DNA from: Escherichia phage Cyrano | Sequence record: OV696614 | Reading direction: 5' to 3' (one strand) | Length of the DNA: 64,000 bases | Part shown: piece by piece, positions 7,021 through 64,000 of the stretch | Layout: each line of letters opens with the position of its first letter | Numbering within the stretch: position 1 is the first letter of the stretch | Program-made: the position numbers and the translations under genes | The notes under the pieces: generated by a model | Database searches by the model: none | The model's input: the letters and a program-made list of their open reading frames with translations, nothing else | What the model was told of the DNA's origin: nothing

Positions 7021-7095
7021 GATGGTGTAGCTCAGTGGTAGAGCAGTTGGCTGTTAACCAACTGGTCGGTGGTTCGAATCCACCCACCATCGCCA
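7021..7095 (+). tRNA. tRNA-Asn (anticodon GTT)
   Basis: Cloverleaf read by hand: acceptor gatggtg/caccatc, anticodon loop ctGTTaa, T-loop ttcgaat, 3' CCA. Confidence 0.85.
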
Positions 7096-7097
7096 AT

Positions 7098-7173
7098 GCC
7101 GGTTTAGCTCAGTTGGTAGAGCACCTGCCTTGTAAGCAGGATGTCAGCGGTTCGAATCCGTTAACCGGCACCA
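7098..7173 (+). tRNA. tRNA-Thr (anticodon TGT)
   Basis: Acceptor gccggtt/aaccggc, anticodon loop ctTGTaa, T-loop ttcgaat, 3' CCA. Confidence 0.85.
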
Positions 7174-7181
7174 ACACAATT

Positions 7182-7268
7182 GGAGAGTAGAGAGCATGGT
7201 GCTCAAGCGGTCTTGAAAACCGTCCCATTGCGCAAGCGATGATGGTTCGATTCCATTACTCTCCGCCA
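7182..7268 (+). tRNA. tRNA-Ser (anticodon TGA), type II with long variable arm
   Basis: 87 nt; acceptor ggagagt/actctcc, anticodon loop ctTGAaa, long variable arm, T-loop ttcgatt, 3' CCA. Confidence 0.8.
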
Positions 7269-18566: not shown

Positions 18567-18782
18567 TCAGCTTAGAGCAACGACATTTGCTGCTGCTGGG
18601 CCTTTAGCACCATTCTCGATAGAGAATTCGACCTGCTGGCCTTCTTCCAAAGTGCGGAAATTATTACTCTGAATTGCCGAAAAATGTACAAAAACATCTT
18701 TACTGCCATCAGCAGGAGAAATAAAGCCAAAGCCTTTATCAGAGTTAAACCATTTTACTAAACCAGTCATTTTATTAGACAT
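18567..18782 (-). CDS. cold-shock protein, CspA family
   Basis: Start moved to internal ATG giving about 70 aa: [30 protein letters not shown] (RNP1/RNP2 motifs). Confidence 0.85.
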
Positions 18783-19675: not shown

Positions 19676-19735
19676 AGTTTTCCTTTGAAGATAGTTGGAC
19701 AGTTTCTGCAAAAGGCGGCTAATGCCGCCTTGAAA

Positions 19736-19960
19736 TCATTTACAACGATCAACCATTCGTTTGATCTGTTTGGCATGGTTTTCGGGATTACCCGGAGTCG
19801 ACCATACGCTCATTTGGTGAGTTTTGTGTTCACCTTCTGGATTACCGCATCGCAGTCTGCAAAAACAATGTGCAGCACCACCAGCAGCTACCCAGATCCA
19901 GCCTTTACTTAATGCATAGTCAATGGCTGCTTGAATATGCTTATTCGGATGTTGCTTCAT
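19736..19960 (-). CDS. hypothetical small Cys/His-rich protein
   Basis: 74 aa, upstream of and co-directional with 19112-19675. Confidence 0.35.
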   Translation of the reverse strand: MKQHPNKHIQAAIDYALSKGWIWVAAGGAAHCFCRLRCGNPEGEHKTHQMSVWSTPGNPENHAKQIKRMVDRCK

Positions 19961-21851: not shown

Positions 21852-22796
21852 GTGAATTATCTCTTCGTAGATGGCAATAGCCTGGGTTATTACCACCAAC
21901 AATCTGACAAATTGCACAACGGCGAAATGGAAGTACAGGCTGCTTTCGGCTTTGTTAAGAACGTCCGTCGTTATGCCTCCATCCTCCATGCCCGACCTAT
22001 GATTCTTTGGGATGGATTTAGTGACAAGCGTCGCGACTTTTACCCGGACTACAAGGCAAATCGCGACGACGATCCTGATATGAAAAAGATGAAGGAAGGC
22101 TTTGCTATCCAGAAGCCATACATCCTCAAAATGATGACCGCGCTTGGAGTTACCCAACTCATTGCAAAAGATGCAGAAGCGGATGATCTGGCCGGGCTGC
22201 TGGTATCCCGCATGGCACCGCAGCCAACCGTTGAACACATCTATCTGTTAACAGGCGATAGCGACTGGCTTCAGTTAGTTCGTGAAAACGTAAGCTGGGT
22301 AAGCCTGCGTGAAGACGCCAAAAACAAGCAGGTTAATTTTGAGCAATTTGCGGAGCTGACAGGATTCGCTACTCCTCGCGCATTTTTGGAAGCAAAAGCA
22401 TTACAAGGCGATAAATCGGACAACATTAGCGGTGTTGGTGGCATTGGTGCTGGCGGTGCGAAAGAGCTGCTGCATGAATGGGGAAGTGTCGCAACGATGG
22501 TACGCGGCATCAACGACGGCTCAATCGTGGTTGACAAAGGACGCCATAAGACCGCCTTCAACAAACTAGCGAAGAATGCCTTCAACGAGAAAACAGGCTG
22601 TCGAATGCTCGAAGCGTTCAAGAGAAACATCACGCTAATGAACCTGATTGAGACGAAGTTTCCGCCTACCGAAATCGAAACAATCAAAGGCAATCGTGAC
22701 GTGAAAGCATTCGAGCAACTGTGCTACGAGCTGAATTTCCGTTCGTTCCTTGAAGACCTTGAAGTGTTTGTTCTTCCATTCGAAAGGTATTGCTAA
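21852..22796 (+). CDS. 5'-3' exonuclease / flap endonuclease (RNase H-like, FEN family)
   Basis: Start moved to GTG 21852 behind GGAAGGA RBS because track start 21801 lies inside the terminator hairpin; NYLFVDGNSLGYY, GDSDWLQLV and KSDNISGVGGIG motifs. Confidence 0.8.
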   Translation: MNYLFVDGNSLGYYHQQSDKLHNGEMEVQAAFGFVKNVRRYASILHARPMILWDGFSDKRRDFYPDYKANRDDDPDMKKMKEGFAIQKPYILKMMTALGVTQLIAKDAEADDLAGLLVSRMAPQPTVEHIYLLTGDSDWLQLVRENVSWVSLREDAKNKQVNFEQFAELTGFATPRAFLEAKALQGDKSDNISGVGGIGAGGAKELLHEWGSVATMVRGINDGSIVVDKGRHKTAFNKLAKNAFNEKTGCRMLEAFKRNITLMNLIETKFPPTEIETIKGNRDVKAFEQLCYELNFRSFLEDLEVFVLPFERYC

Positions 22797-53386: not shown

Positions 53387-53766
53387 TGTTTGGCATTGAC
53401 GCACAGCGTATAGCCGCTTTTGCAAAAAGCCCTCTTGATAATCCCTTGTCTCGTAGTGAGCAAATGGAGCTGGCAAGGCTTTTTCTTCACATTCAAAAAC
53501 AGGCAGACATTTTCAATAACATGCCTAATCAACCTATTCTGGATGGTCACATCCAGATGGTCATTAACAGTCATGAGAAAGGCTGGGCTGCAATCGTCCC
53601 CTGCACAATTACATACAGGTTGGCTAAAGAGGTTCAAGAGTTTCGAAAAGTCAGTGTCGAATCAGAGTCTACCAAAGCCGCAATAAACACTCTTATTCGC
53701 ATGGGGTTCACATGGACCGGTGGAGCCTACTGGCAAGCACCTCACCCCATTTTATCCGGCAATTAG
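53386..53766 (+). CDS. hypothetical protein
   Basis: 126 aa; ATGA-coupled start. Confidence 0.4.
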   Translation: MFGIDAQRIAAFAKSPLDNPLSRSEQMELARLFLHIQKQADIFNNMPNQPILDGHIQMVINSHEKGWAAIVPCTITYRLAKEVQEFRKVSVESESTKAAINTLIRMGFTWTGGAYWQAPHPILSGN

Positions 53767-53903
53767 ACGCTACAAATCCTTCGGCATGAATAAATAAAGG
53801 CCATAAGTTGTGGCCTTAAATAAATTGTTTTCTACCTTTTCTTATTTGTGAAAATAACCAGCACTTGGTAGTGCTTATGTAACAGCAAAGAAGAGAAAAA
53901 CAC

Positions 53904-55847: not shown

Positions 55848-56509
55848 TGCATAAATCAGTAGCCGGTGAGTTTCAGAAGGAAGTCGATAATACTACCGTT
55901 CTATTGGACGATATTTTAAGCATTCTCGCGCTTCTTGAGGCTGGCGATTGGTCAGAACATTGCACTAAAACGGAGTTAGGCGGTCGGCTTGAAAGAGAGA
56001 TTACACGACTTATTGGTGATGCGCAGGAAGCTACAGTCACTAGTTATGAGTTAATCGCTGAAGCCTGGCGTTTGATGGATGGACAAGATCCTAAAACCAG
56101 CGATTGGCATAGCAAGGCTTCGAAGTATTTAAATTCCGATAGGGTAGAAAAAGTTGATGATGTGAAACCGAAGCCAGTAGACCACGGTTTCCGCGATAAC
56201 TGCGAATGCTCTAGTTGCCAGACCACGGCCCGTATTTGTTCCGAATTGACAGATAAGTCCAGCCTAATCTACGAAGTTAATGTAGGCGGTAATACATGGG
56301 TCGAATGCACAAGAGCTGCATACGTAAGAGCAAAAGACAAGGGTGAATTAACCAGAGTTGTTACCAATCACCCAAATAATGAGCTTAAAGATCACCAGAT
56401 TCGAGAACTGGTGAACGAGTTGAGAGATATTGCGGTTCAGTACCACGGAACGCAGCAATTGCGGGAGAAGATTGCCAGAGCAGTGAACAACTCAGTCCGT
56501 AAAAAATAA
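55844..56509 (+). CDS. hypothetical protein
   Basis: 221 aa; ATGA-coupled start. Confidence 0.45.
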   Translation: MMHKSVAGEFQKEVDNTTVLLDDILSILALLEAGDWSEHCTKTELGGRLEREITRLIGDAQEATVTSYELIAEAWRLMDGQDPKTSDWHSKASKYLNSDRVEKVDDVKPKPVDHGFRDNCECSSCQTTARICSELTDKSSLIYEVNVGGNTWVECTRAAYVRAKDKGELTRVVTNHPNNELKDHQIRELVNELRDIAVQYHGTQQLREKIARAVNNSVRKK

Positions 56510-56949
56510 GCAATAGTACGATAAAGAGGCCCCATGCTCTTGATGGGGCCTGTAGCAACTAGCGTTATGGACGCTGGTTTACGTACTCAATGATCGCTTT
56601 GATAATCGCGAACATCGGCGGCACGATTTTGAACAGTAAGTTAACCATAACAGGCCTCACTTAGTTTTATCGCGCCTAGCTGCAAATACCTTTGGGCTTG
56701 CCTTTGCAGTTGCAATATCTGTAGTCGCCAGATACTTACGGCACGATTTCGAGTTAAGGTAAGGTTTTAGAGTCACCAAAAACCTGGACTTAAATCTTCT
56801 TTGAGAACAACGATGTTTAGTAAATGGTCATTATTACCTGGTATGACCACTCAACGTTTCTTGATGAATCCAGTACATTCGGTTAATCTTAATTCAGTCG
56901 CCAGATACTTATGGCTCAGGAACAGAGCCGCAAACTCTGTTTCCTTTTA

Positions 56950-56980
56950 AAAAGCCCAGCCTAGTCAACTGGGCTTTTTA
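56950..56980. terminator. Bidirectional rho-independent terminator
   Basis: aaaaagcccag..ctgggcttttta hairpin with flanking A and T runs. Confidence 0.6.
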
Positions 56981-57274
56981 ATGTCTATTTTTAACCCAAT
57001 GAACCTTCAATACCGCAACATCAGTGTCTTGCGAATTAAGATAGTGTGTATAGGTTATGCATGCAAGTGCATAACTCTGTGGATAACTCAGGAAGGAAAA
57101 AGTAGCTTCCGCGCAATTTAGGCCAGACAAGGCTTTCGCAAAAGTCAACAGAGAGAAAAAATTTGTTAAAAATAACGTTTGTTGGAATTGTATATATTTA
57201 TGCCTTTCAATAGTTAGCATCTTATTAACATCTTTTTTAAGAGATAGAGTTCAAAAATATATAGCTTCAACATA

Positions 57275-57294
57275 TACTGTATGTGTATACAGTA
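57275..57294. promoter_or_regulatory. LexA (SOS) box
   Basis: tactgtatgtgtatacagta: perfect CTGT-N8-ACAG palindrome about 17 nt upstream of the humD-like start. Confidence 0.8.
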
Positions 57295-57310
57295 TTAAGA
57301 GGCGAGTATT

Positions 57311-57700
57311 ATGGGCTTCCCTTCTCCTGCGGCGGATTATGCTGAGAGCCGTATTTCTCTTGATCAGCAGATAATTAGACATCCTTCAGCGACCTACTTC
57401 ATGAGGGCAGCTGATAGTCATCATCGTGAGGGAATATTACAGGGTGCATTGCTGGTGGTCGATTCCTCACTTACCCCGGTTGATGGTTCTCTGCTTGTAT
57501 GCGCTCTGGATGGGGAATATCGCGTAAAAAGATACCGGAAGTACCCACGTCAGCATCTGGAGGATTTAAGAACCGGTAAGAAGGAAGCATTGCCAAAGGA
57601 TGACGATGGATGCACGGGCAGCAATGCCGTGTTTGGTGTGATCACTCACATTATCAACGACGCAAGAAGTGGCGAGTTTGATGATTGTCCCGTGATGTAG
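57311..57700 (+). CDS. humD: UmuD'-like protein (P1 HumD-like, pre-truncated)
   Basis: 129 aa beginning MGFPSPAADYAE, i.e. at the position of the UmuD Cys24-Gly25 cleavage site; S24 peptidase-like core. Confidence 0.8.
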   Translation: MGFPSPAADYAESRISLDQQIIRHPSATYFMRAADSHHREGILQGALLVVDSSLTPVDGSLLVCALDGEYRVKRYRKYPRQHLEDLRTGKKEALPKDDDGCTGSNAVFGVITHIINDARSGEFDDCPVM

Positions 57701-57712
57701 GAGAACTGATTA

Positions 57713-57736
57713 GGCGGTGCATTGCACCGCCTTTTT
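57713..57736. terminator. Bidirectional terminator between humD-like gene and mrp
   Basis: ggcggtgcattgcaccgcc hairpin followed by tttttat. Confidence 0.7.
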
Positions 57737-57737
57737 A

Positions 57738-58838
57738 TCACACTGCGCGGAATGCGATTTCGCCAGGTATTACTTCACCTTGCCAATACATTTGGGCAGC
57801 AACGCGATCTGCGAGGTCACGATAAATAGCCGTAAATTCGCTATCTGGACGACTAATAACGGTTGGTGTTCCGTTATCCAGATCTTCACGAAGAGAGATA
57901 TGAAGTGGCATTTGGCCTAACAACTGCGTGTTGTATTTCTCGGCCAGTTTCTGTGCGCCACCGGTGCCAAAAATTGGCTCGTGATGACCGCAGTTACTGC
58001 AAATATGCACACTCATGTTTTCGACGATACCCAGTACCGGCACTTCGACTTTTTCGAACATCACAATGCCTTTCTTCGCATCGATCAGCGCGATGTCTTG
58101 CGGCGTAGTTACCACAACCGCACCAGTTACAGGAATGTTCTGCGCCAGCGTCAACTGAATATCACCAGTGCCCGGCGGCATATCGAGAACGAGATAGTCC
58201 AGATCAGGCCACAGTGTTTCCTGCAACATCTGCATCAGCGCCTTGCTGGCCATCGGTCCACGCCACACCATCGCATTGTCGTCAGTGACCAGATAACCAA
58301 TTGAATTGGTTGCCAGGCCATGAGACATGATAGGTGCCATGTGAGTACCGTCAGGTGAGGTTGGACGTTGGTTTTCCGCGCCCAGCATGGTTGGAATTGA
58401 TGGCCCGTAGATATCGGCATCCAAAATACCAACTTTCGCACCTTCAGCCGCCAGCGCCAGCGCCAGGTTTACCGCCGTGGAGGATTTACCCACGCCGCCT
58501 TTACCGGAGCTGACCGCAATGATGTTCTTCACGCCATTAATGCCTGGTTGGTTTTTGACGCGCTTAAGCGTGGCAATGTTGTACGACAGCTTCCAGTCAA
58601 TAGCCTTTGCGCCAGTGATACGGAGCAGATCACCACTACATTGCTCTTTCAGATCTTCAAAAGGCTTATTCCACACGAAAGGCATGATTAGTTCGACATG
58701 CAGTGTGTCATCCATCAACGCAACATGGTGTAACGCTTTAAGCGTAGTCAGGTTGTGTTTCAGGGTTGGGTGCTGAAAATTAGCCAGCGTACCGGCTACC
58801 ATTGCTCTCAGGGCATCCGGCGATTTGGACTCGCTCAT
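57738..58838 (-). CDS. mrp: Iron-sulfur cluster carrier ATPase Mrp/ApbC
   Basis: 366 aa; P-loop SSGKGGVGKSST, CxxC motif ICSNCGHHEPIFG; enterobacterial Mrp-like; divergent from metG. Confidence 0.9.
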   Translation of the reverse strand: MSESKSPDALRAMVAGTLANFQHPTLKHNLTTLKALHHVALMDDTLHVELIMPFVWNKPFEDLKEQCSGDLLRITGAKAIDWKLSYNIATLKRVKNQPGINGVKNIIAVSSGKGGVGKSSTAVNLALALAAEGAKVGILDADIYGPSIPTMLGAENQRPTSPDGTHMAPIMSHGLATNSIGYLVTDDNAMVWRGPMASKALMQMLQETLWPDLDYLVLDMPPGTGDIQLTLAQNIPVTGAVVVTTPQDIALIDAKKGIVMFEKVEVPVLGIVENMSVHICSNCGHHEPIFGTGGAQKLAEKYNTQLLGQMPLHISLREDLDNGTPTVISRPDSEFTAIYRDLADRVAAQMYWQGEVIPGEIAFRAV

Positions 58839-58995
58839 CCCGTCTCCTTTATTTTAATTTGCGCAATTGTCGCCTTGTAGTGTACTCCAGCTACGACATT
58901 TAATCATTTATGAGAAATGCTGTTATCACATGGCAGACATAAGGCCATTTTGTTACTATCAAGCCCCTTTTCACTACAAAGAAGTAATGCCTACT

Positions 58996-61029
58996 ATGAC
59001 CCAAGTCGCGAAGAAAATTCTGGTGACGTGCGCGCTGCCGTACGCTAACGGCTCAATCCACCTCGGCCATATGCTGGAGCACATCCAGGCTGATGTCTGG
59101 GTTCGTTACCAGCGAATGCGCGGCCACGAGGTTAATTTCATCTGTGCCGACGATGCCCACGGTACGCCGATCATGCTGAAAGCACAGCAGCTTGGTATCA
59201 CACCGGAGCAGATGATTGGCGAAATGAGTCAGGAGCATCAGACTGATTTCGCAGGCTTTAACATCAGCTATGACAACTATCACTCGACGCACAGCGAAGA
59301 GAACCGTCAGTTGTCTGAGCTTATCTATACTCGCCTGAAAGAGAACGGTTTTATTAAAAACCGCACTATCTCTCAGTTGTACGACCCGGAAAAAGGCATG
59401 TTCCTGCCGGATCGTTTTGTGAAAGGCACCTGCCCGAAATGTAAAGCGCCAGATCAATACGGCGATAACTGTGAAGTCTGCGGCGCAACATATAGCCCGA
59501 CTGAATTGATCGAGCCGAAATCGGTGGTTTCTGGCGCTACCCCGGTAATGCGTGATTCCGAACACTTCTTCTTTGATCTGCCTTCTTTCAGCGAAATGTT
59601 GCAGGCATGGACCCGCAGCGGCGCGTTGCAGGAGCAGGTGGCAAACAAAATGCAGGAGTGGTTTGAATCTGGCCTGCAACAGTGGGATATCTCCCGCGAT
59701 GCGCCTTACTTCGGTTTTGAAATTCCGGACGCGCCGGGCAAATATTTCTACGTCTGGCTGGACGCGCCGATTGGCTACATGGGTTCCTTCAAGAATCTGT
59801 GCGACAAGCGCGGCGATACCACCAGCTTCGATGAATACTGGAAGAAAGACTCCACCGCCGAGCTGTACCACTTCATCGGTAAAGATATTGTTTACTTCCA
59901 CAGCCTGTTCTGGCCTGCCATGCTGGAAGGCAGCAACTTCCGCAAGCCGACCAACCTGTTTGTTCACGGCTATGTGACGGTGAACGGCGCGAAGATGTCC
60001 AAGTCTCGCGGCACCTTTATTAAAGCCAGCACCTGGCTGAATCATTTTGACGCTGACAGCCTGCGTTACTACTACACTGCGAAACTCTCTTCGCGCATTG
60101 ATGATATCGATCTCAACCTGGAGGATTTCGTTCAGCGCGTGAATGCCGATATCGTGAACAAAGTGGTTAACCTGGCCTCCCGTAATGCAGGCTTTATCAA
60201 CAAGCGTTTTGACGGCGTGCTGGCAAGCGAACTGGCTGACCCGCAACTGTACAAAACCTTTACTGATGCCGCTGAAGTGATTGGCGAAGCATGGGAAAGC
60301 CGTGAATTTGGTAAAGCTATCCGTGAAATCATGGCATTGGCTGACCTGGCTAACCGCTATGTCGATGAACAGGCTCCGTGGGTGGTGGCGAAGCAGGAAG
60401 GACGCGATGCCGATCTGCAGGCGATTTGCTCTATGGGCATTAACCTGTTCCGCGTGCTGATGACGTACCTGAAGCCGGTACTGCCGAAACTGACTGAACG
60501 TGCAGAAGCATTCCTGAATACAGAACTGACCTGGGATGGCATCCAGCAACCGTTGCTGGGCCATAAAGTGAATCCGTTCAAGGCACTGTATAACCGCATC
60601 GATATGAAGCAGGTTGAAGCACTGGTGGAAGCATCCAAAGAAGAAGTGAAAGCCACAGCCGCACCGGTAACTGGCCCACTGGCTGACGACCCGATTCAGG
60701 AAACTATCACCTTTGACGACTTCGCCAAAGTTGACCTGCGCGTGGCGCTGATTGAAAACGCAGAGTTTGTAGAAGGTTCTGACAAACTGCTACGCCTGAC
60801 GCTGGATCTCGGTGGTGAAAAGCGTAATGTCTTCTCAGGCATCCGTTCTGCTTATCCAGACCCACAGGCACTGATTGGTCGTCACACCATTATGGTGGCT
60901 AACCTGGCTCCGCGTAAAATGCGCTTCGGTATCTCCGAAGGCATGGTGATGGCTGCTGGCCCCGGCGGGAAAGATATCTTCCTGTTAAGCCCGGATGCTG
61001 GTGCTAAACCAGGCCACCAGGTTAAGTAA
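58996..61029 (+). CDS. metG: Methionyl-tRNA synthetase
   Basis: Start set at [26 protein letters not shown] (HIGH motif), KMSKS present, zinc-knuckle CPKC..CEVC, C-terminal tRNA-binding domain; 677 aa. Confidence 0.9.
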
Positions 61030-61049
61030 TTAAACAACCTCTCTTCGCA

Positions 61050-61076
61050 ATGCCCGGCAACACGCCGGGCATTTTC
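61050..61076 (+). terminator. Rho-independent terminator after metG
   Basis: gcccggcaacacgccgggc hairpin then atttt. Confidence 0.65.
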
Positions 61077-61102
61077 ATATAGACACAATCCCTTCTGATT
61101 TA

Positions 61103-61117
61103 CACAGTACCTAAAAC
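61103..61117. promoter_or_regulatory. Palindromic motif AAACAA-N-TTGTTT
   Basis: aaaacaatttgtttt downstream of metG. Confidence 0.4.
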
Positions 61118-61153
61118 AATTTGTTTTCTGCCTTTTGTTGATTGAGATAATAA

Positions 61154-61167
61154 GCCACATAAGAAAA
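61154..61167. promoter_or_regulatory. Palindromic motif AAACAA-N-TTGTTT
   Basis: aaaacaaattgttt about 15 nt upstream of the 61182 start. Confidence 0.4.
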
Positions 61168-61181
61168 CAAATTGTTTCGGA

Positions 61182-61490
61182 GTGGTTGAAATGTTGAACA
61201 TTACCCAAGCCTACCAGGTGGCATTGATCAGTTCATCTCATACATCAGAGGAAGATGCTCGCCGATTCATGATCGCAAGCAATGAGCTGGATTGGGTTTC
61301 ACAAATTGATGGCGGTTGTATTGTCCACGCCGGGTTACAGGATGATGTCTGGAAAGAGGACTTGCGTCGATATGGTATATCCGAAGGCGCGATTGCTAAC
61401 ATTCAGAAAGTACTTGATGTAGGCTTTGACTCTGTACATTTTGATTGTGGTGCACCGGTCGTTGAAGGGCTTGAGTGCTGGAACTGGTAA
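61182..61490 (+). CDS. hypothetical protein
   Basis: 102 aa. Confidence 0.45.
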   Translation: MVEMLNITQAYQVALISSSHTSEEDARRFMIASNELDWVSQIDGGCIVHAGLQDDVWKEDLRRYGISEGAIANIQKVLDVGFDSVHFDCGAPVVEGLECWNW

Positions 61491-61535
61491 CAGATATTAA
61501 AGCATTGGTAGTTTGTTTTTAGGATTATCAAAGAA

Positions 61536-62270
61536 ATGAAAAAGTTGAAAAGTTTAGAAATCCCTGGAACTGGTTATAAATTCTTTATGGACAACGCGGA
61601 GTGTGCACCTAACGCGTTGGAAAAAATACAAAGTCTTATCAACAGCCTTACTGAAGAAGCGAAAGAACTGAAGAGCGAGGCGACAAAGGACAATACAGCT
61701 AAAATCCAATGCTTAAATCTCGTCTCTTATTGTTTATATCAAGTATCCAAAACACTGATTAAAGGCAATATCTATTACGACGATGAAGACACCTCGACAC
61801 CTGAAGAAAAAGATAGCGATGAAGAACTCTATGAAGATATCTCTACTAGTGCGGGTCACGCTGCCTTCGATGCTATGGGTGAATCGTCAGGCATCAGATC
61901 ATTTGTTGAACAGAACAATTCGACAATAATGATTGAGTACTGTGAACAAACAAGCTCCAAGGCCATACATGTTCTTCACGATGTTGCTGCAGGGGTTCGC
62001 TGTGAGGCTGAAGCGGTCAGAAAAGATGTATTTGGTGCAGACAGTAATACCGTGAAAGCGTTTATCAACAGTGCTCTGCTAAATTCTTACTCAAACCTTA
62101 TAGTCAATGCGGCACTATGCGCAAATTCAGGTGAAGAACACATTGTCATAACTGAAACCAAACATGAGCATCAACAGTCACCAACCATAGAAGAGGTAAC
62201 TGCATTGGCTATCAAACAGGCGAGTGAAATTAGTGATGAAATTCTCTCTCTGCTAAACAAAACTAAGTAA
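61536..62270 (+). CDS. hypothetical acidic protein
   Basis: 244 aa; acidic, Ser/Glu-rich. Confidence 0.45.
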   Translation: MKKLKSLEIPGTGYKFFMDNAECAPNALEKIQSLINSLTEEAKELKSEATKDNTAKIQCLNLVSYCLYQVSKTLIKGNIYYDDEDTSTPEEKDSDEELYEDISTSAGHAAFDAMGESSGIRSFVEQNNSTIMIEYCEQTSSKAIHVLHDVAAGVRCEAEAVRKDVFGADSNTVKAFINSALLNSYSNLIVNAALCANSGEEHIVITETKHEHQQSPTIEEVTALAIKQASEISDEILSLLNKTK

Positions 62271-62399
62271 AACATTGATAATGGCGGTCACAATTTGATT
62301 CTTTTCTATAAGAATCCGTTGATCGCCACTACTCCCCTTCCATACCCGCAACCACATCCTTAAATATCAATAAGTTATAGTTGTTTATACAATCAAGAA

Positions 62400-63120
62400 A
62401 ACAACTGAATAACAGATCAACGAAACGTCAACGCTTTCACCCGATTTGGCCTAAAAAATTGACGTTTTCACACATCACTGCTTATACCCGTAATTCTACG
62501 CAGCAGACAGCACCACAGCGTTCAATTTTCACCACAGACGACTCAACACACTACCAACAAAAACACACGCTCAAAATCGCTCCCGTTGCGTTACATAACC
62601 ATATAAACAACTTATTTTCAGGCATAACAAAACAACTAAATAACACATATGCCATTACCCAAAACAACCAACCTCTTTATGGCAGGCTACCGAAAAGACC
62701 CACCTCTTCTTCCCAGGCTACCGGACAACCAACCTAACTTTCACAGGCAATCCGAAAACATTCATACGCGCGATACCCACGACACGCCATTACCCAAACA
62801 GCGAAGAAACACCAGAATCACTGAAACCCCAACGAAGCCTGTAACCGCAAGGTTTCTCTCAATCCCAAAAGACACGAAACATAACAATCACGGGAAACGC
62901 CATTACCCAATACACGAATAACTACAAAAGCCTTTCACACACTCCAGACAAACAACTCAAACACAATAACGAAAGGAATCGCCCACCTGCCATTACTCCA
63001 TACACGGAGAAGAACAATCACCAAAACGACGAGAACACCCCATAGAAGAACCACCGCAAAACTAACGAAACCACATACACCGACAGAGAAAACAACACAC
63101 CCAATTCACCAACAGAAATA
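62400..63120. repeat. Strand-asymmetric A+C-rich noncoding region with dispersed GCCATTACYC repeats
   Basis: Top strand almost devoid of G and T runs; four copies of gccattac(c/t)c at about 62651, 62786, 62899 and 62989. Confidence 0.5.
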
Positions 63121-63329
63121 GTCGCCGTATAGAACGTTCTGGAAGGAGTGAGCATTAACGCCTATAGAGAGGTTGAAACAGATAAAACACGAAGAAAACA
63201 CAACATGTATAGCGAACAAGACAGGTATGTATAAGTGGGGAGGGAAGGAGGGGTGTCGCCTCCTTTTTCGTATTTATTCAACTCCTGATTTTATCCCCCG
63301 TAACACCCCTACGGTCAGCCTTCGGTCCA

Positions 63330-63475
63330 TACAGGGAAAAGGCTGCATCCCGCTACAGAAACGGCTGGGTTGCCTTCGGGGAACGGCTGGAGGTTTTCAG
63401 GGAAACGGTCGAGTTGCCTGTGTGGATTTCGGGAAAAGGCTCGATGCCGGTTCAGGAACGGCGGCGTACCGGTAT
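63330..63475. repeat. G-rich iteron-like direct repeat array
   Basis: About six units resembling cAGGGAAAcGGCTsG at 22-23 bp periodicity. Confidence 0.5.
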
Positions 63476-63789
63476 AGCGTGAGGGAGAGTTGCGGCTACC
63501 CACCTGTAATGTGCGGGAAGAAGAGAGGCGCTCACGTGCAGGCGAACTTACTTACCGCAGGATTCCCTCTGAATGCCCAACTACAGCGTAATTGTGCCAG
63601 ACAGCCAACGGGCCACAATCGATTTCAGTAGGTTTTCGGGGAGATGATTATTCTGCCCACCAGCCACCTTCGGCCACTAAATCAGAATAATGTAAAAAGT
63701 GTACTCGGTACTGAACCTGAAAACTCACTGCCAAAACCACATTCACCGGAATAAAATCCTTTTTCGCCTTTGCGTTATTGCGATAATAA

Positions 63790-63805
63790 CACCATCAAGA
63801 AAACA
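63790..63805. promoter_or_regulatory. Palindromic motif AAACAT-N-TTGTTT (one mismatch)
   Basis: gaaaacatgttgtttaa about 10 nt upstream of the partial gene. Confidence 0.35.
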
Positions 63806-63815
63806 TGTTGTTTAA

Positions 63816-64000
63816 GGATTGCTTTATGTTTGCAAATATCGACATCAACCAAATTAAGAAATTGACTCAAAAAGAGTTTGACCAGTTTTATGAGTTAGAA
63901 GGTTGGTCTTCCACTCTGATTAATTCAAGATGGGTGCTGGAACTGATGACTCGTGATGACGCACCTGCTTTGATGATCAGCGACCTGGGTGAAGATGCTG
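63816..64000 (+). CDS. hypothetical protein (3' truncated by window end)
   Basis: ATG at 63816 read by hand, open to the end of the window. Confidence 0.4.

Follow-up and report, generated by a model that had tools for sequence, protein, structure and literature searches.

The window analysed here is a 64,000-nucleotide stretch of Escherichia phage Cyrano (sequence record OV696614), and its positions 57738 to 61029 hold two genes of host type, apbC (also named mrp) and metG. The sequence and the list of open reading frames (ORFs) place the two genes divergently, both intact, with element DNA on either side of the pair. The divergent order is that of the E. coli chromosome, which agrees with the enterobacterial arrangement noted in a preliminary description of this DNA made from the letters alone. 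The 3.3-kb block and its ends are composed of the following features.

57712-57732, plus strand: humD terminator hairpin from the terminator scan, abutting the apbC stop codon at the left junction of the block
57738-58838, minus strand: apbC (mrp), iron-sulphur (Fe-S) cluster carrier P-loop ATPase of 366 amino acids, from the ORF list and homology
58839-58995, between apbC and metG: putative divergent intergenic promoter region
58996-61029, plus strand: metG, methionine-tRNA ligase, full-length with 677 amino acids including the C-terminal tRNA-binding/dimerisation domain, from homology
61049-61078, plus strand: terminator-like hairpin 3' of metG (ATGCCCGGC-AACAC-GCCGGGCAT, then TTTCAT), read from the sequence

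Both products show the expected Pfam architecture and pass the equivalog cut-offs of their families with their motifs intact, as anticipated by the early view of them as ordinary enterobacterial Mrp and methionyl-tRNA synthetase (MetRS). ApbC matches the NCBIfam equivalog NF008669 with 759.3 bits against a cut-off of 348, having the deviant Walker A motif GKGGVGKS at residue 112 and the C-terminal CxxC motif as CSNC at residue 280; it is 94.6% identical to the K-12 protein, and its N-terminus is 3 residues shorter than that of chromosomal ApbC. The MetRS matches NCBIfam NF001100 over residues 4 to 677 (1020.9 bits, cut-off 587) and TIGR00398 (697 bits, cut-off 336), contains the Pfam domains Anticodon_3 and tRNA_bind, and keeps the signatures HLGH at residue 22 and KMSKS at residue 333 together with two CxxC zinc knuckles, CPKC at 146 and CEVC at 159. 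Solved crystal structures of E. coli MetRS are matched by the element enzyme over residues 1 to 551. Homology to E. coli places the start of metG at the ATG at position 58996, whereas the mechanical ORF opens at the TTG at 58867. An antisense ORF of 503 amino acids within metG (59053-60564) was set aside as a by-product of the high GC content at third codon positions (GC3).

Of the 677 residues of the element MetRS, 9 are not those of K-12 MetRS (98.7% identity), all of the differences being conservative and none being fixed across all plasmid copies; the change N245D is private to the window. This identity and the low ratio of nonsynonymous to synonymous substitution rates (dN/dS, here 0.01 to 0.05) described below suggest that the enzyme aminoacylates tRNA-Met, and it is predicted to be an additional, essentially wild-type copy. 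The idea of an inhibitor-insensitive plasmid variant was rejected on account of these same differences.

E. coli chromosomes match the window only at 57742-61030, in two pieces with 90.1 to 90.8% identity, and the alignments to E. coli, E. albertii, and Citrobacter extend from the apbC stop codon to the metG stop codon. The GC content of 58-61 kb is 0.50-0.53 against 0.42-0.47 in the flanks. The short terminator-bounded flanks of the preliminary description are found as hairpin and T-run structures at 57712-57732 and 61049-61078. The hairpin at 61049-61078 is specific to the phage-plasmids and present in every one of their copies. It shows no homology to what follows metG on the chromosomes of E. 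coli, E. albertii, and Citrobacter, and the consensus terminator scan did not list it.

The K-12 locus shares the gene order and, essentially, the protein lengths with the window at 90.5% identity overall, but the window spacer has been rearranged, with a length resembling that in Citrobacter. Alignment of the spacer to E. coli and E. albertii is confined to its last 47 bases (93.6%), whereas about 135 bases align to Citrobacter at 77 to 78%, with the part away from metG being the better Citrobacter match in both length and sequence. The spacer changes from old sequence on the apbC side to Escherichia-like sequence on the metG side at about 58949, and the approximately 50 promoter-proximal bases of metG are conserved with the chromosome.

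The element and the spread of the block

From its sequence, the window is assigned to a circular SSU5-supergroup phage-plasmid of about 108 kb, in an E. coli/Shigella clade which includes p09EL50, Escherichia phage CMS-2020a, PhiR41_1, and pWPMR2-like plasmids. It represents the replication, early, and accessory half of the element, and the supergroup assignment is made from the genes of this half. The circular 108-kb E. coli plasmid p1444_3 matches positions 56000-64000 at 99.1% identity in a single piece across both junctions of the block, demonstrating contiguity on both sides. Positions 40000-64000 match three deposited phage genomes at 96 to 98%, namely two records of CMS-2020a and PhiR41_1 (host K-12), and the first 25 kb of the window show the same relationships. 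SSU5 itself has about 80% identity over 58% of positions 1-25000 and 40% of positions 40000-64000. The related plasmids are circular, 105 to 114 kb long, non-mobilisable, and belong to rep_cluster_488.

A plasmid with at least 80% of positions 57200-61500 is present in 214 of 5426 complete E. coli genomes (about 4%). A match is present in all 5426 of these genomes, with 5538 chromosomal places, and the plasmid metG is thus a second copy. PLSDB contains 201 plasmids with at least 80% of the block at 95.8 to 99.4% identity, from E. coli, Shigella sonnei, and E. albertii, among them p09EL50 of E. coli O104:H4. The backbone dnaE region is found at 90% identity or more in about 217 records, and nearly every member of the clade appears to carry the block, as judged from comparing these counts and not from a record-by-record intersection.

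More than 200 complete circular plasmids, assembled independently, have the same metG-side (right-hand) junction, as do the three phage genomes, a recurrence that excludes a chimeric assembly. An assembly error, or an end of the host chromosome or of an integrated prophage at the metG segment, would be suggested by the host-type genes and by a GC content above that of the flanks, but we regard it as practically out of the question: in addition to the recurrent junction, the block reaches no more than about 90.5% identity to any of the 5426 E. coli chromosomes and is not the host's own locus, and element-specific promoter cassettes and genes continue 3' of metG. The element is an extrachromosomal circle, and therefore no element/chromosome junction exists. 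The original proposal that the genes lie inside the element as cargo and not at a junction is thus borne out by the recurrent right junction and the element DNA on both sides, while the alternatives of a chimera or a different junction architecture, which had been left standing, fall with the complete circular plasmids.

The pWPMR2-like phage-plasmids of S. sonnei and E. coli resemble the window in type, being circular, about 108 kb long, non-mobilisable, and of rep_cluster_488, with the block at the same site. In the S. sonnei plasmids NZ_CP045933 and NZ_CP034066, the block is 97.0 to 98.7% identical to that of the window, whose nearest relatives are E. coli plasmids (p1444_3, 99.1%). The S. 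sonnei MetRS copy examined has the changes G134C, A410T, and D565E, which the window MetRS lacks, whereas N245D is found in the window. A large survey (bioRxiv 10.1101/2025.09.12.675607) reports pWPMR2-like elements from 18% of S. sonnei and, among E. coli, from CC131, CC23, and CC73.

The founding members of the supergroup, SSU5 and pHCM2, share backbone synteny with the window at about 80% over the replication and early regions and have the same promoter cassettes with the palindrome AAACAA-N-TTGTTT. Exact copies of this palindrome number 6 in the window, where 0.19 would be expected; with up to one mismatch allowed, the count rises to 11, for an expectation of 0.46.

80, 11105, 26595, 38326, 48549, 49278, 53818, 61114, 61165, 62605, and 63801: AAACAA-N-TTGTTT sites from the 13-base palindrome scan
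63801-63813, plus strand: palindrome copy AAACATGTTGTTT with one mismatch, 13 bases 5' of an ATG

Most of the palindromes lie a few bases 3' of a -10-like hexamer and 10 to 45 bases 5' of a plus-strand start codon. The three copies first described downstream of metG are real, two being exact (61114 and 61165) and one having a single mismatch (63801), but the positions given for them were about 11 bases off. The palindrome is found in every phage-plasmid locus examined, with 8 copies in 31 kb of SSU5, and in none of 81 chromosomal loci, which together span about 640 kb from enterobacteria, so it is element-specific and not a common host sequence. The dispersed sites recall the scattered C1 operators of phage P1, and the palindrome is probably, as a hypothesis from its placement, the operator of an element regulator acting at many dispersed early promoters. 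No copy lies within 57738-61029, the spacer at 58839-58995 included, and the cargo would therefore be outside that putative regulon.

Selection on the two genes and their histories

The selection analysis compared seven plasmid copies with the chromosomal genes. For metG, the dN/dS is 0.009 to 0.076, with a synonymous divergence (dS) among the plasmid copies of up to 0.33, as deep as that between E. coli and E. albertii (0.34). The ApbC protein is identical in six of the seven plasmid copies although the dS is 0.12 to 0.27, and the window apbC has 29 to 31 synonymous differences from two plasmid copies with a nonsynonymous divergence (dN) of 0. Both genes are thus under strong purifying selection and therefore maintained by selection on the element.

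These values bear on the possibility that the block is a recent, functionless hitch-hiker, a chromosome piece brought in by illegitimate recombination and carried passively. Phage-plasmids do acquire host DNA, and one sister plasmid also took der. Such passive carriage is nevertheless very improbable, as the purifying selection has acted over large synonymous divergence in both genes, the block appears to occur in nearly every clade member and is trimmed exactly to coding units, the apbC GC3 is partly ameliorated, and a second, diverged lineage (see below) retains the same gene pair.

At the nucleotide level, the plasmid metG is 94.3% identical to K-12, 93.2% to E. albertii, and about 87% to Citrobacter, and judging by these identities it sits inside Escherichia. 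The plasmid apbC is 82.7, 82.5, and 80.6 to 82.2% identical to the same three, being about equidistant from them with a dS of about 1.3 each. Between the chromosomes of E. coli and E. albertii, the identities are 93.2% for metG and 89.3% for apbC. The GC3 of apbC is 0.51-0.53 in the plasmids (0.53 in the window) against 0.61-0.76 in the chromosomes, and that of metG is 0.60-0.63 in the plasmids against 0.625 in E. coli. Since the synonymous sites of apbC are saturated against all chromosomes sampled and its GC3 has drifted partly towards that of the element, apbC is likely an old resident of the element. The cargo is not a recent pick-up from the present host, as its identity to E. coli chromosomes does not exceed about 90.5%, and its apbC half is far older than its metG half.

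Several sister plasmids have stretches of metG which are the same, or nearly so, as in K-12. The S. sonnei plasmid metG contains a 344-base run identical to K-12 (nucleotides 427-770 of metG; P < 5e-5 by shuffling among variable sites), across which the window has 16 mismatches. The metG of pZ1323 has a K-12-identical run of 191 bases (P about 0.001), and that of the O104:H4 plasmid has 3 mismatches to K-12 in nucleotides 208-674. Such tracts indicate gene conversion with the chromosomal metG.

In our reading of these sequences, apbC and metG may have been captured together long ago, after which apbC diverged on the element and metG was repeatedly homogenised with the host metG. We propose only tentatively, at somewhat less than an even chance, the fuller picture of a long-lived element lineage with a frozen ApbC that meets an element-specific need and a metG that is kept host-like by recurrent conversion with the chromosomal gene of whatever Escherichia or Shigella strain harbours the plasmid. 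If true, this would be a case of concerted evolution of a mobile aminoacyl-tRNA synthetase gene with its host copy, explaining the "highly variable" plasmid metG alleles, and through the recurrent conversion, alleles could also pass into the chromosomal metG, an essential gene.

A second, rarer lineage was found in four draft E. coli assemblies (GCA_016987495, GCA_021582475, GCA_021861085, and GCA_016989725; loci L089-L092) and in none of the complete E. coli genomes. It keeps apbC, metG, and the DUF5983 gene that follows metG, together with the downstream palindrome, and its block adjoins Rpn, the IS605 tnpB, hok, a cytochrome c peroxidase gene, and cybC. Against K-12, its metG is 96.9% and its apbC 72.9% identical in nucleotides (79% in amino acids), with an apbC GC3 of 0.43, so that the discordance between the two genes is stronger here than in the clade of the window. 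Its ApbC has the same short N-terminus as the window clade.

Cargo, expression and possible roles

The element is very probably a phage-plasmid carrying a captured and selected apbC-metG pair as moron-like cargo, with a spacer and a terminator hairpin of its own. Under this reading, a 3.3-kb block would have been copied from an enterobacterial chromosome into a variable early-gene island, comprising the divergent pair and its own intergenic promoter region and trimmed to the two stop codons. As the block lacks the promoter/operator palindromes of the element, it would be transcribed on its own, in the manner of a moron, in the plasmid (lysogenic) state. The absence of palindromes and the host-type promoter-proximal sequence seem to fit better with expression in the lysogen than with timed lytic expression. 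The host of the lysogen would gain a second, near wild-type MetRS and a second ApbC.

According to the summary of Tam et al. 2024 given in PMC12452169, variable metG copies on a phage-plasmid (pWPMR2) go together with multidrug resistance in S. sonnei, and expression of the plasmid metG gives rise to a sub-population that is predisposed to acquire third-generation cephalosporin resistance. Perturbation of MetRS has also been described to raise persistence (PMC11004401). Following this literature, expression of the plasmid metG would produce a sub-population that survives antimicrobials.

Several points weigh against this reading. The consensus promoter scan gave no convincing sigma-70 site in the apbC-metG spacer, its sites overall being not above those in shuffled sequence, and it is the homology of the last approximately 50 bases before the ATG that points to expression from a host-type promoter. 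The role of the plasmid metG in antimicrobial survival is taken from the secondary summary in PMC12452169, and membership of the window in the same clade as pWPMR2 is judged only by the identity of 97 to 98.7% to S. sonnei plasmids. For the window metG itself, no significant conversion tract was detected (P = 0.11), and the likeness of metG to E. coli could come partly from codon-bias constraint and not from recombination. A donor of apbC was not identified, the protein search giving no cluster closer than 95%, where clustering at 90% hides finer structure. In the donor scan with MetRS, the best chromosome among the matches listed was E. albertii at 88%, against 90.5% for E. coli; these matches comprised E. 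albertii, Citrobacter, Enterobacter, and others, and not E. coli, Salmonella, E. fergusonii, E. marmotae, or E. ruysiae.

The MetRS could instead serve the phage, either in translation initiation and elongation during lytic growth or by countering a host or rival defence that depletes or modifies Met-tRNA or MetRS, with any antibiotic survival as a by-product. The preliminary description had suggested a role in infection or defence evasion, which gained no support in this analysis; the published evidence summarised in PMC12452169 is about how the lysogen survives antimicrobials. The element carries further auxiliary genes of this kind, namely nrdAB, thyA, folA, RNase H, tRNA-Asn/Thr/Ser, and a cspG-like gene, and its metG is under selection although the host has its own, all of which would suit this role. 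We nevertheless consider it unlikely, as the block is without the promoter/operator motif found before the neighbouring early genes and has kept a host-type promoter-proximal region that suits the lysogen better than timed lytic expression, and a MetRS about 99% identical to that of the host is unlikely to escape an inhibitor or toxin aimed at the host enzyme.

Another possibility is that apbC is the gene primarily needed, for example for Fe-S delivery to an enzyme of the element, and that metG was carried along because the pair shares one divergent promoter region. The conservation of ApbC in six of seven copies and over the 29 to 31 synonymous differences is consistent with this, as are its ancient residence on the element and its adapted composition, which set it apart from metG, and the distinct 366-residue form of the protein, with an N-terminus common to the element lineage. 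However, metG is likewise under strong purifying selection, the reported phenotype belongs to metG, and no Fe-S client of the element was identified in this analysis, so we give this explanation a small chance, similar to that of a phage-serving MetRS.

Selected cargo of the lysogen, as preferred here, recalls the phage morons, which are said by Hendrix and colleagues to be autonomously transcribed cargo between phage genes. The block is similar to them in its foreign composition, its place between element genes in a variable region, its own terminator hairpin, and its lack of the element motif. It differs in that the cargo is a housekeeping pair of essential type and not a virulence or exclusion gene, and autonomous transcription is here putative. 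Mobile second aminoacyl-tRNA synthetase genes, such as the plasmid gene ileS2/mupA for mupirocin, are strongly diverged from the host enzyme and drug-insensitive. Both cases place an extra synthetase gene on a mobile element, but the MetRS of the window is about 99% identical to the host enzyme, which makes target replacement unlikely.

Plasmid-borne metG and apbC are already known and annotated in hundreds of plasmids; what may be new are the two-speed evolution of the pair, its exact trimming to the stop codons, and the cassette-flanked island. Searches of the literature for metG persistence in Shigella sonnei or for methionyl-tRNA synthetase in SSU5 found nothing further. Far from being an artefact or a junction, the segment represents a known, selected cargo module of the SSU5-like clade of E. 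coli and Shigella. The metG phage-plasmid is tied to antimicrobial survival in epidemic S. sonnei, as far as the summarised work goes, and is found in about 4% of complete E. coli genomes, so that recognising the element metG is relevant to the surveillance of resistance-prone lineages. The old, frozen apbC, the host-homogenised metG, the trimmed borders, and the edge cassettes may offer leads on why the pair is retained and how metG alleles vary.

The variable island and other features of the element

The block sits within a variable early-gene island of 7.2 kb (53.86-61.11 kb). Synteny with SSU5 is broken from position 53636 of the window to about 61110. The window fills this interval with Ea22/EaA-like genes, humD, apbC, and metG, whereas SSU5 has, between the equivalent cassettes, SSU5_099 to SSU5_103 (a phosphohydrolase, an LprI-family protein, ydfZ, and hypothetical proteins) and no apbC-metG block. 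The edges and the neighbours of the block are listed here.

53787-53860, plus strand: putative related promoter cassette at the left island edge, with the palindrome at 53818-53830 (one mismatch)
57311-57700, plus strand: humD, a P1-like UmuD'-like S24 peptidase gene and left neighbour of the block (NCBIfam HumD equivalog, 219.8 bits, cut-off 120)
61110-61177, plus strand: putative element promoter cassette at the right island edge, with palindromes at 61114-61126 and 61165-61177 flanking a GATAAT -10-like hexamer
61182-61490, plus strand: DUF5983-family gene, right neighbour of metG (Pfam PF19419, E = 7.8e-11)

The cassette at 61110-61177 is homologous to SSU5 cassettes at 19701-19756 and 22413-22480 of the SSU5 locus (L084), and each edge cassette of about 60 to 70 bases matches the SSU5 cassettes at both corresponding positions. 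These repeated edge cassettes could act as recombination substrates for module exchange. The DUF5983 gene 3' of metG is kept throughout the phage-plasmid copies and also by the second lineage.

On the left side, a perfect LexA (SOS) box, TACTGTATGTGTATACAGTA, was read from the sequence at 57275-57294, 17 bases 5' of humD. The region 54.3-57.7 kb matches phage P1 at about 91% identity, indicating that the accessory island is a mosaic common to two phage-plasmid families. The left neighbour of the block varies, being humD in most plasmids and der or a truncated humD in others, the latter in a 64-kb E. albertii derivative. The plasmid pZ1323HEC0016-2 (NZ_CP148383.1; 2771-4243 of locus L085) has a full-length der in place of humD, adjoining apbC, an arrangement unique to it among the 5426 complete genomes. 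This der, encoding a ribosome-biogenesis GTPase, is about 91% identical to E. coli der and is, after metG, the second housekeeping gene connected with translation to have been captured at this spot.

Elsewhere on the element, a tRNA cluster at 7021-7268 encodes Asn-GTT, Thr-TGT, and Ser-TGA. A cold-shock gene resembling cspG/cspB, another host-type gene, lies beside a dnaE-like gene at 18567-18782 on the minus strand and is about 79% identical to E. coli cspG in nucleotides.

To the right of the block, about 900 bases at 62280-63150 are without an annotated gene and are strongly G-poor and A-rich on the plus strand (GC skew -0.32), with 67% conservation in SSU5. They contain repeats of the GCCATTACCCAA type at 62651, 62786, 62899, and 62989 and three tandem 31-base units at 62659-62750, and may represent an iteron, a partition-like site, or a non-coding RNA. 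An Rfam scan of 53-64 kb, including this region, had no match at E <= 0.1, and a tandem-repeat scan of 56.4-64 kb gave nothing relevant.

A second non-coding stretch, at 56520-57000, has a 20-base direct repeat, AGTCGCCAGATACTTAYGGC, at 56723 and 56896 and terminator-like hairpins at 56527-56551 (minus strand) and 56958-56975 (plus strand); the identity to p1444_3 starts near this stretch, at about 56175.

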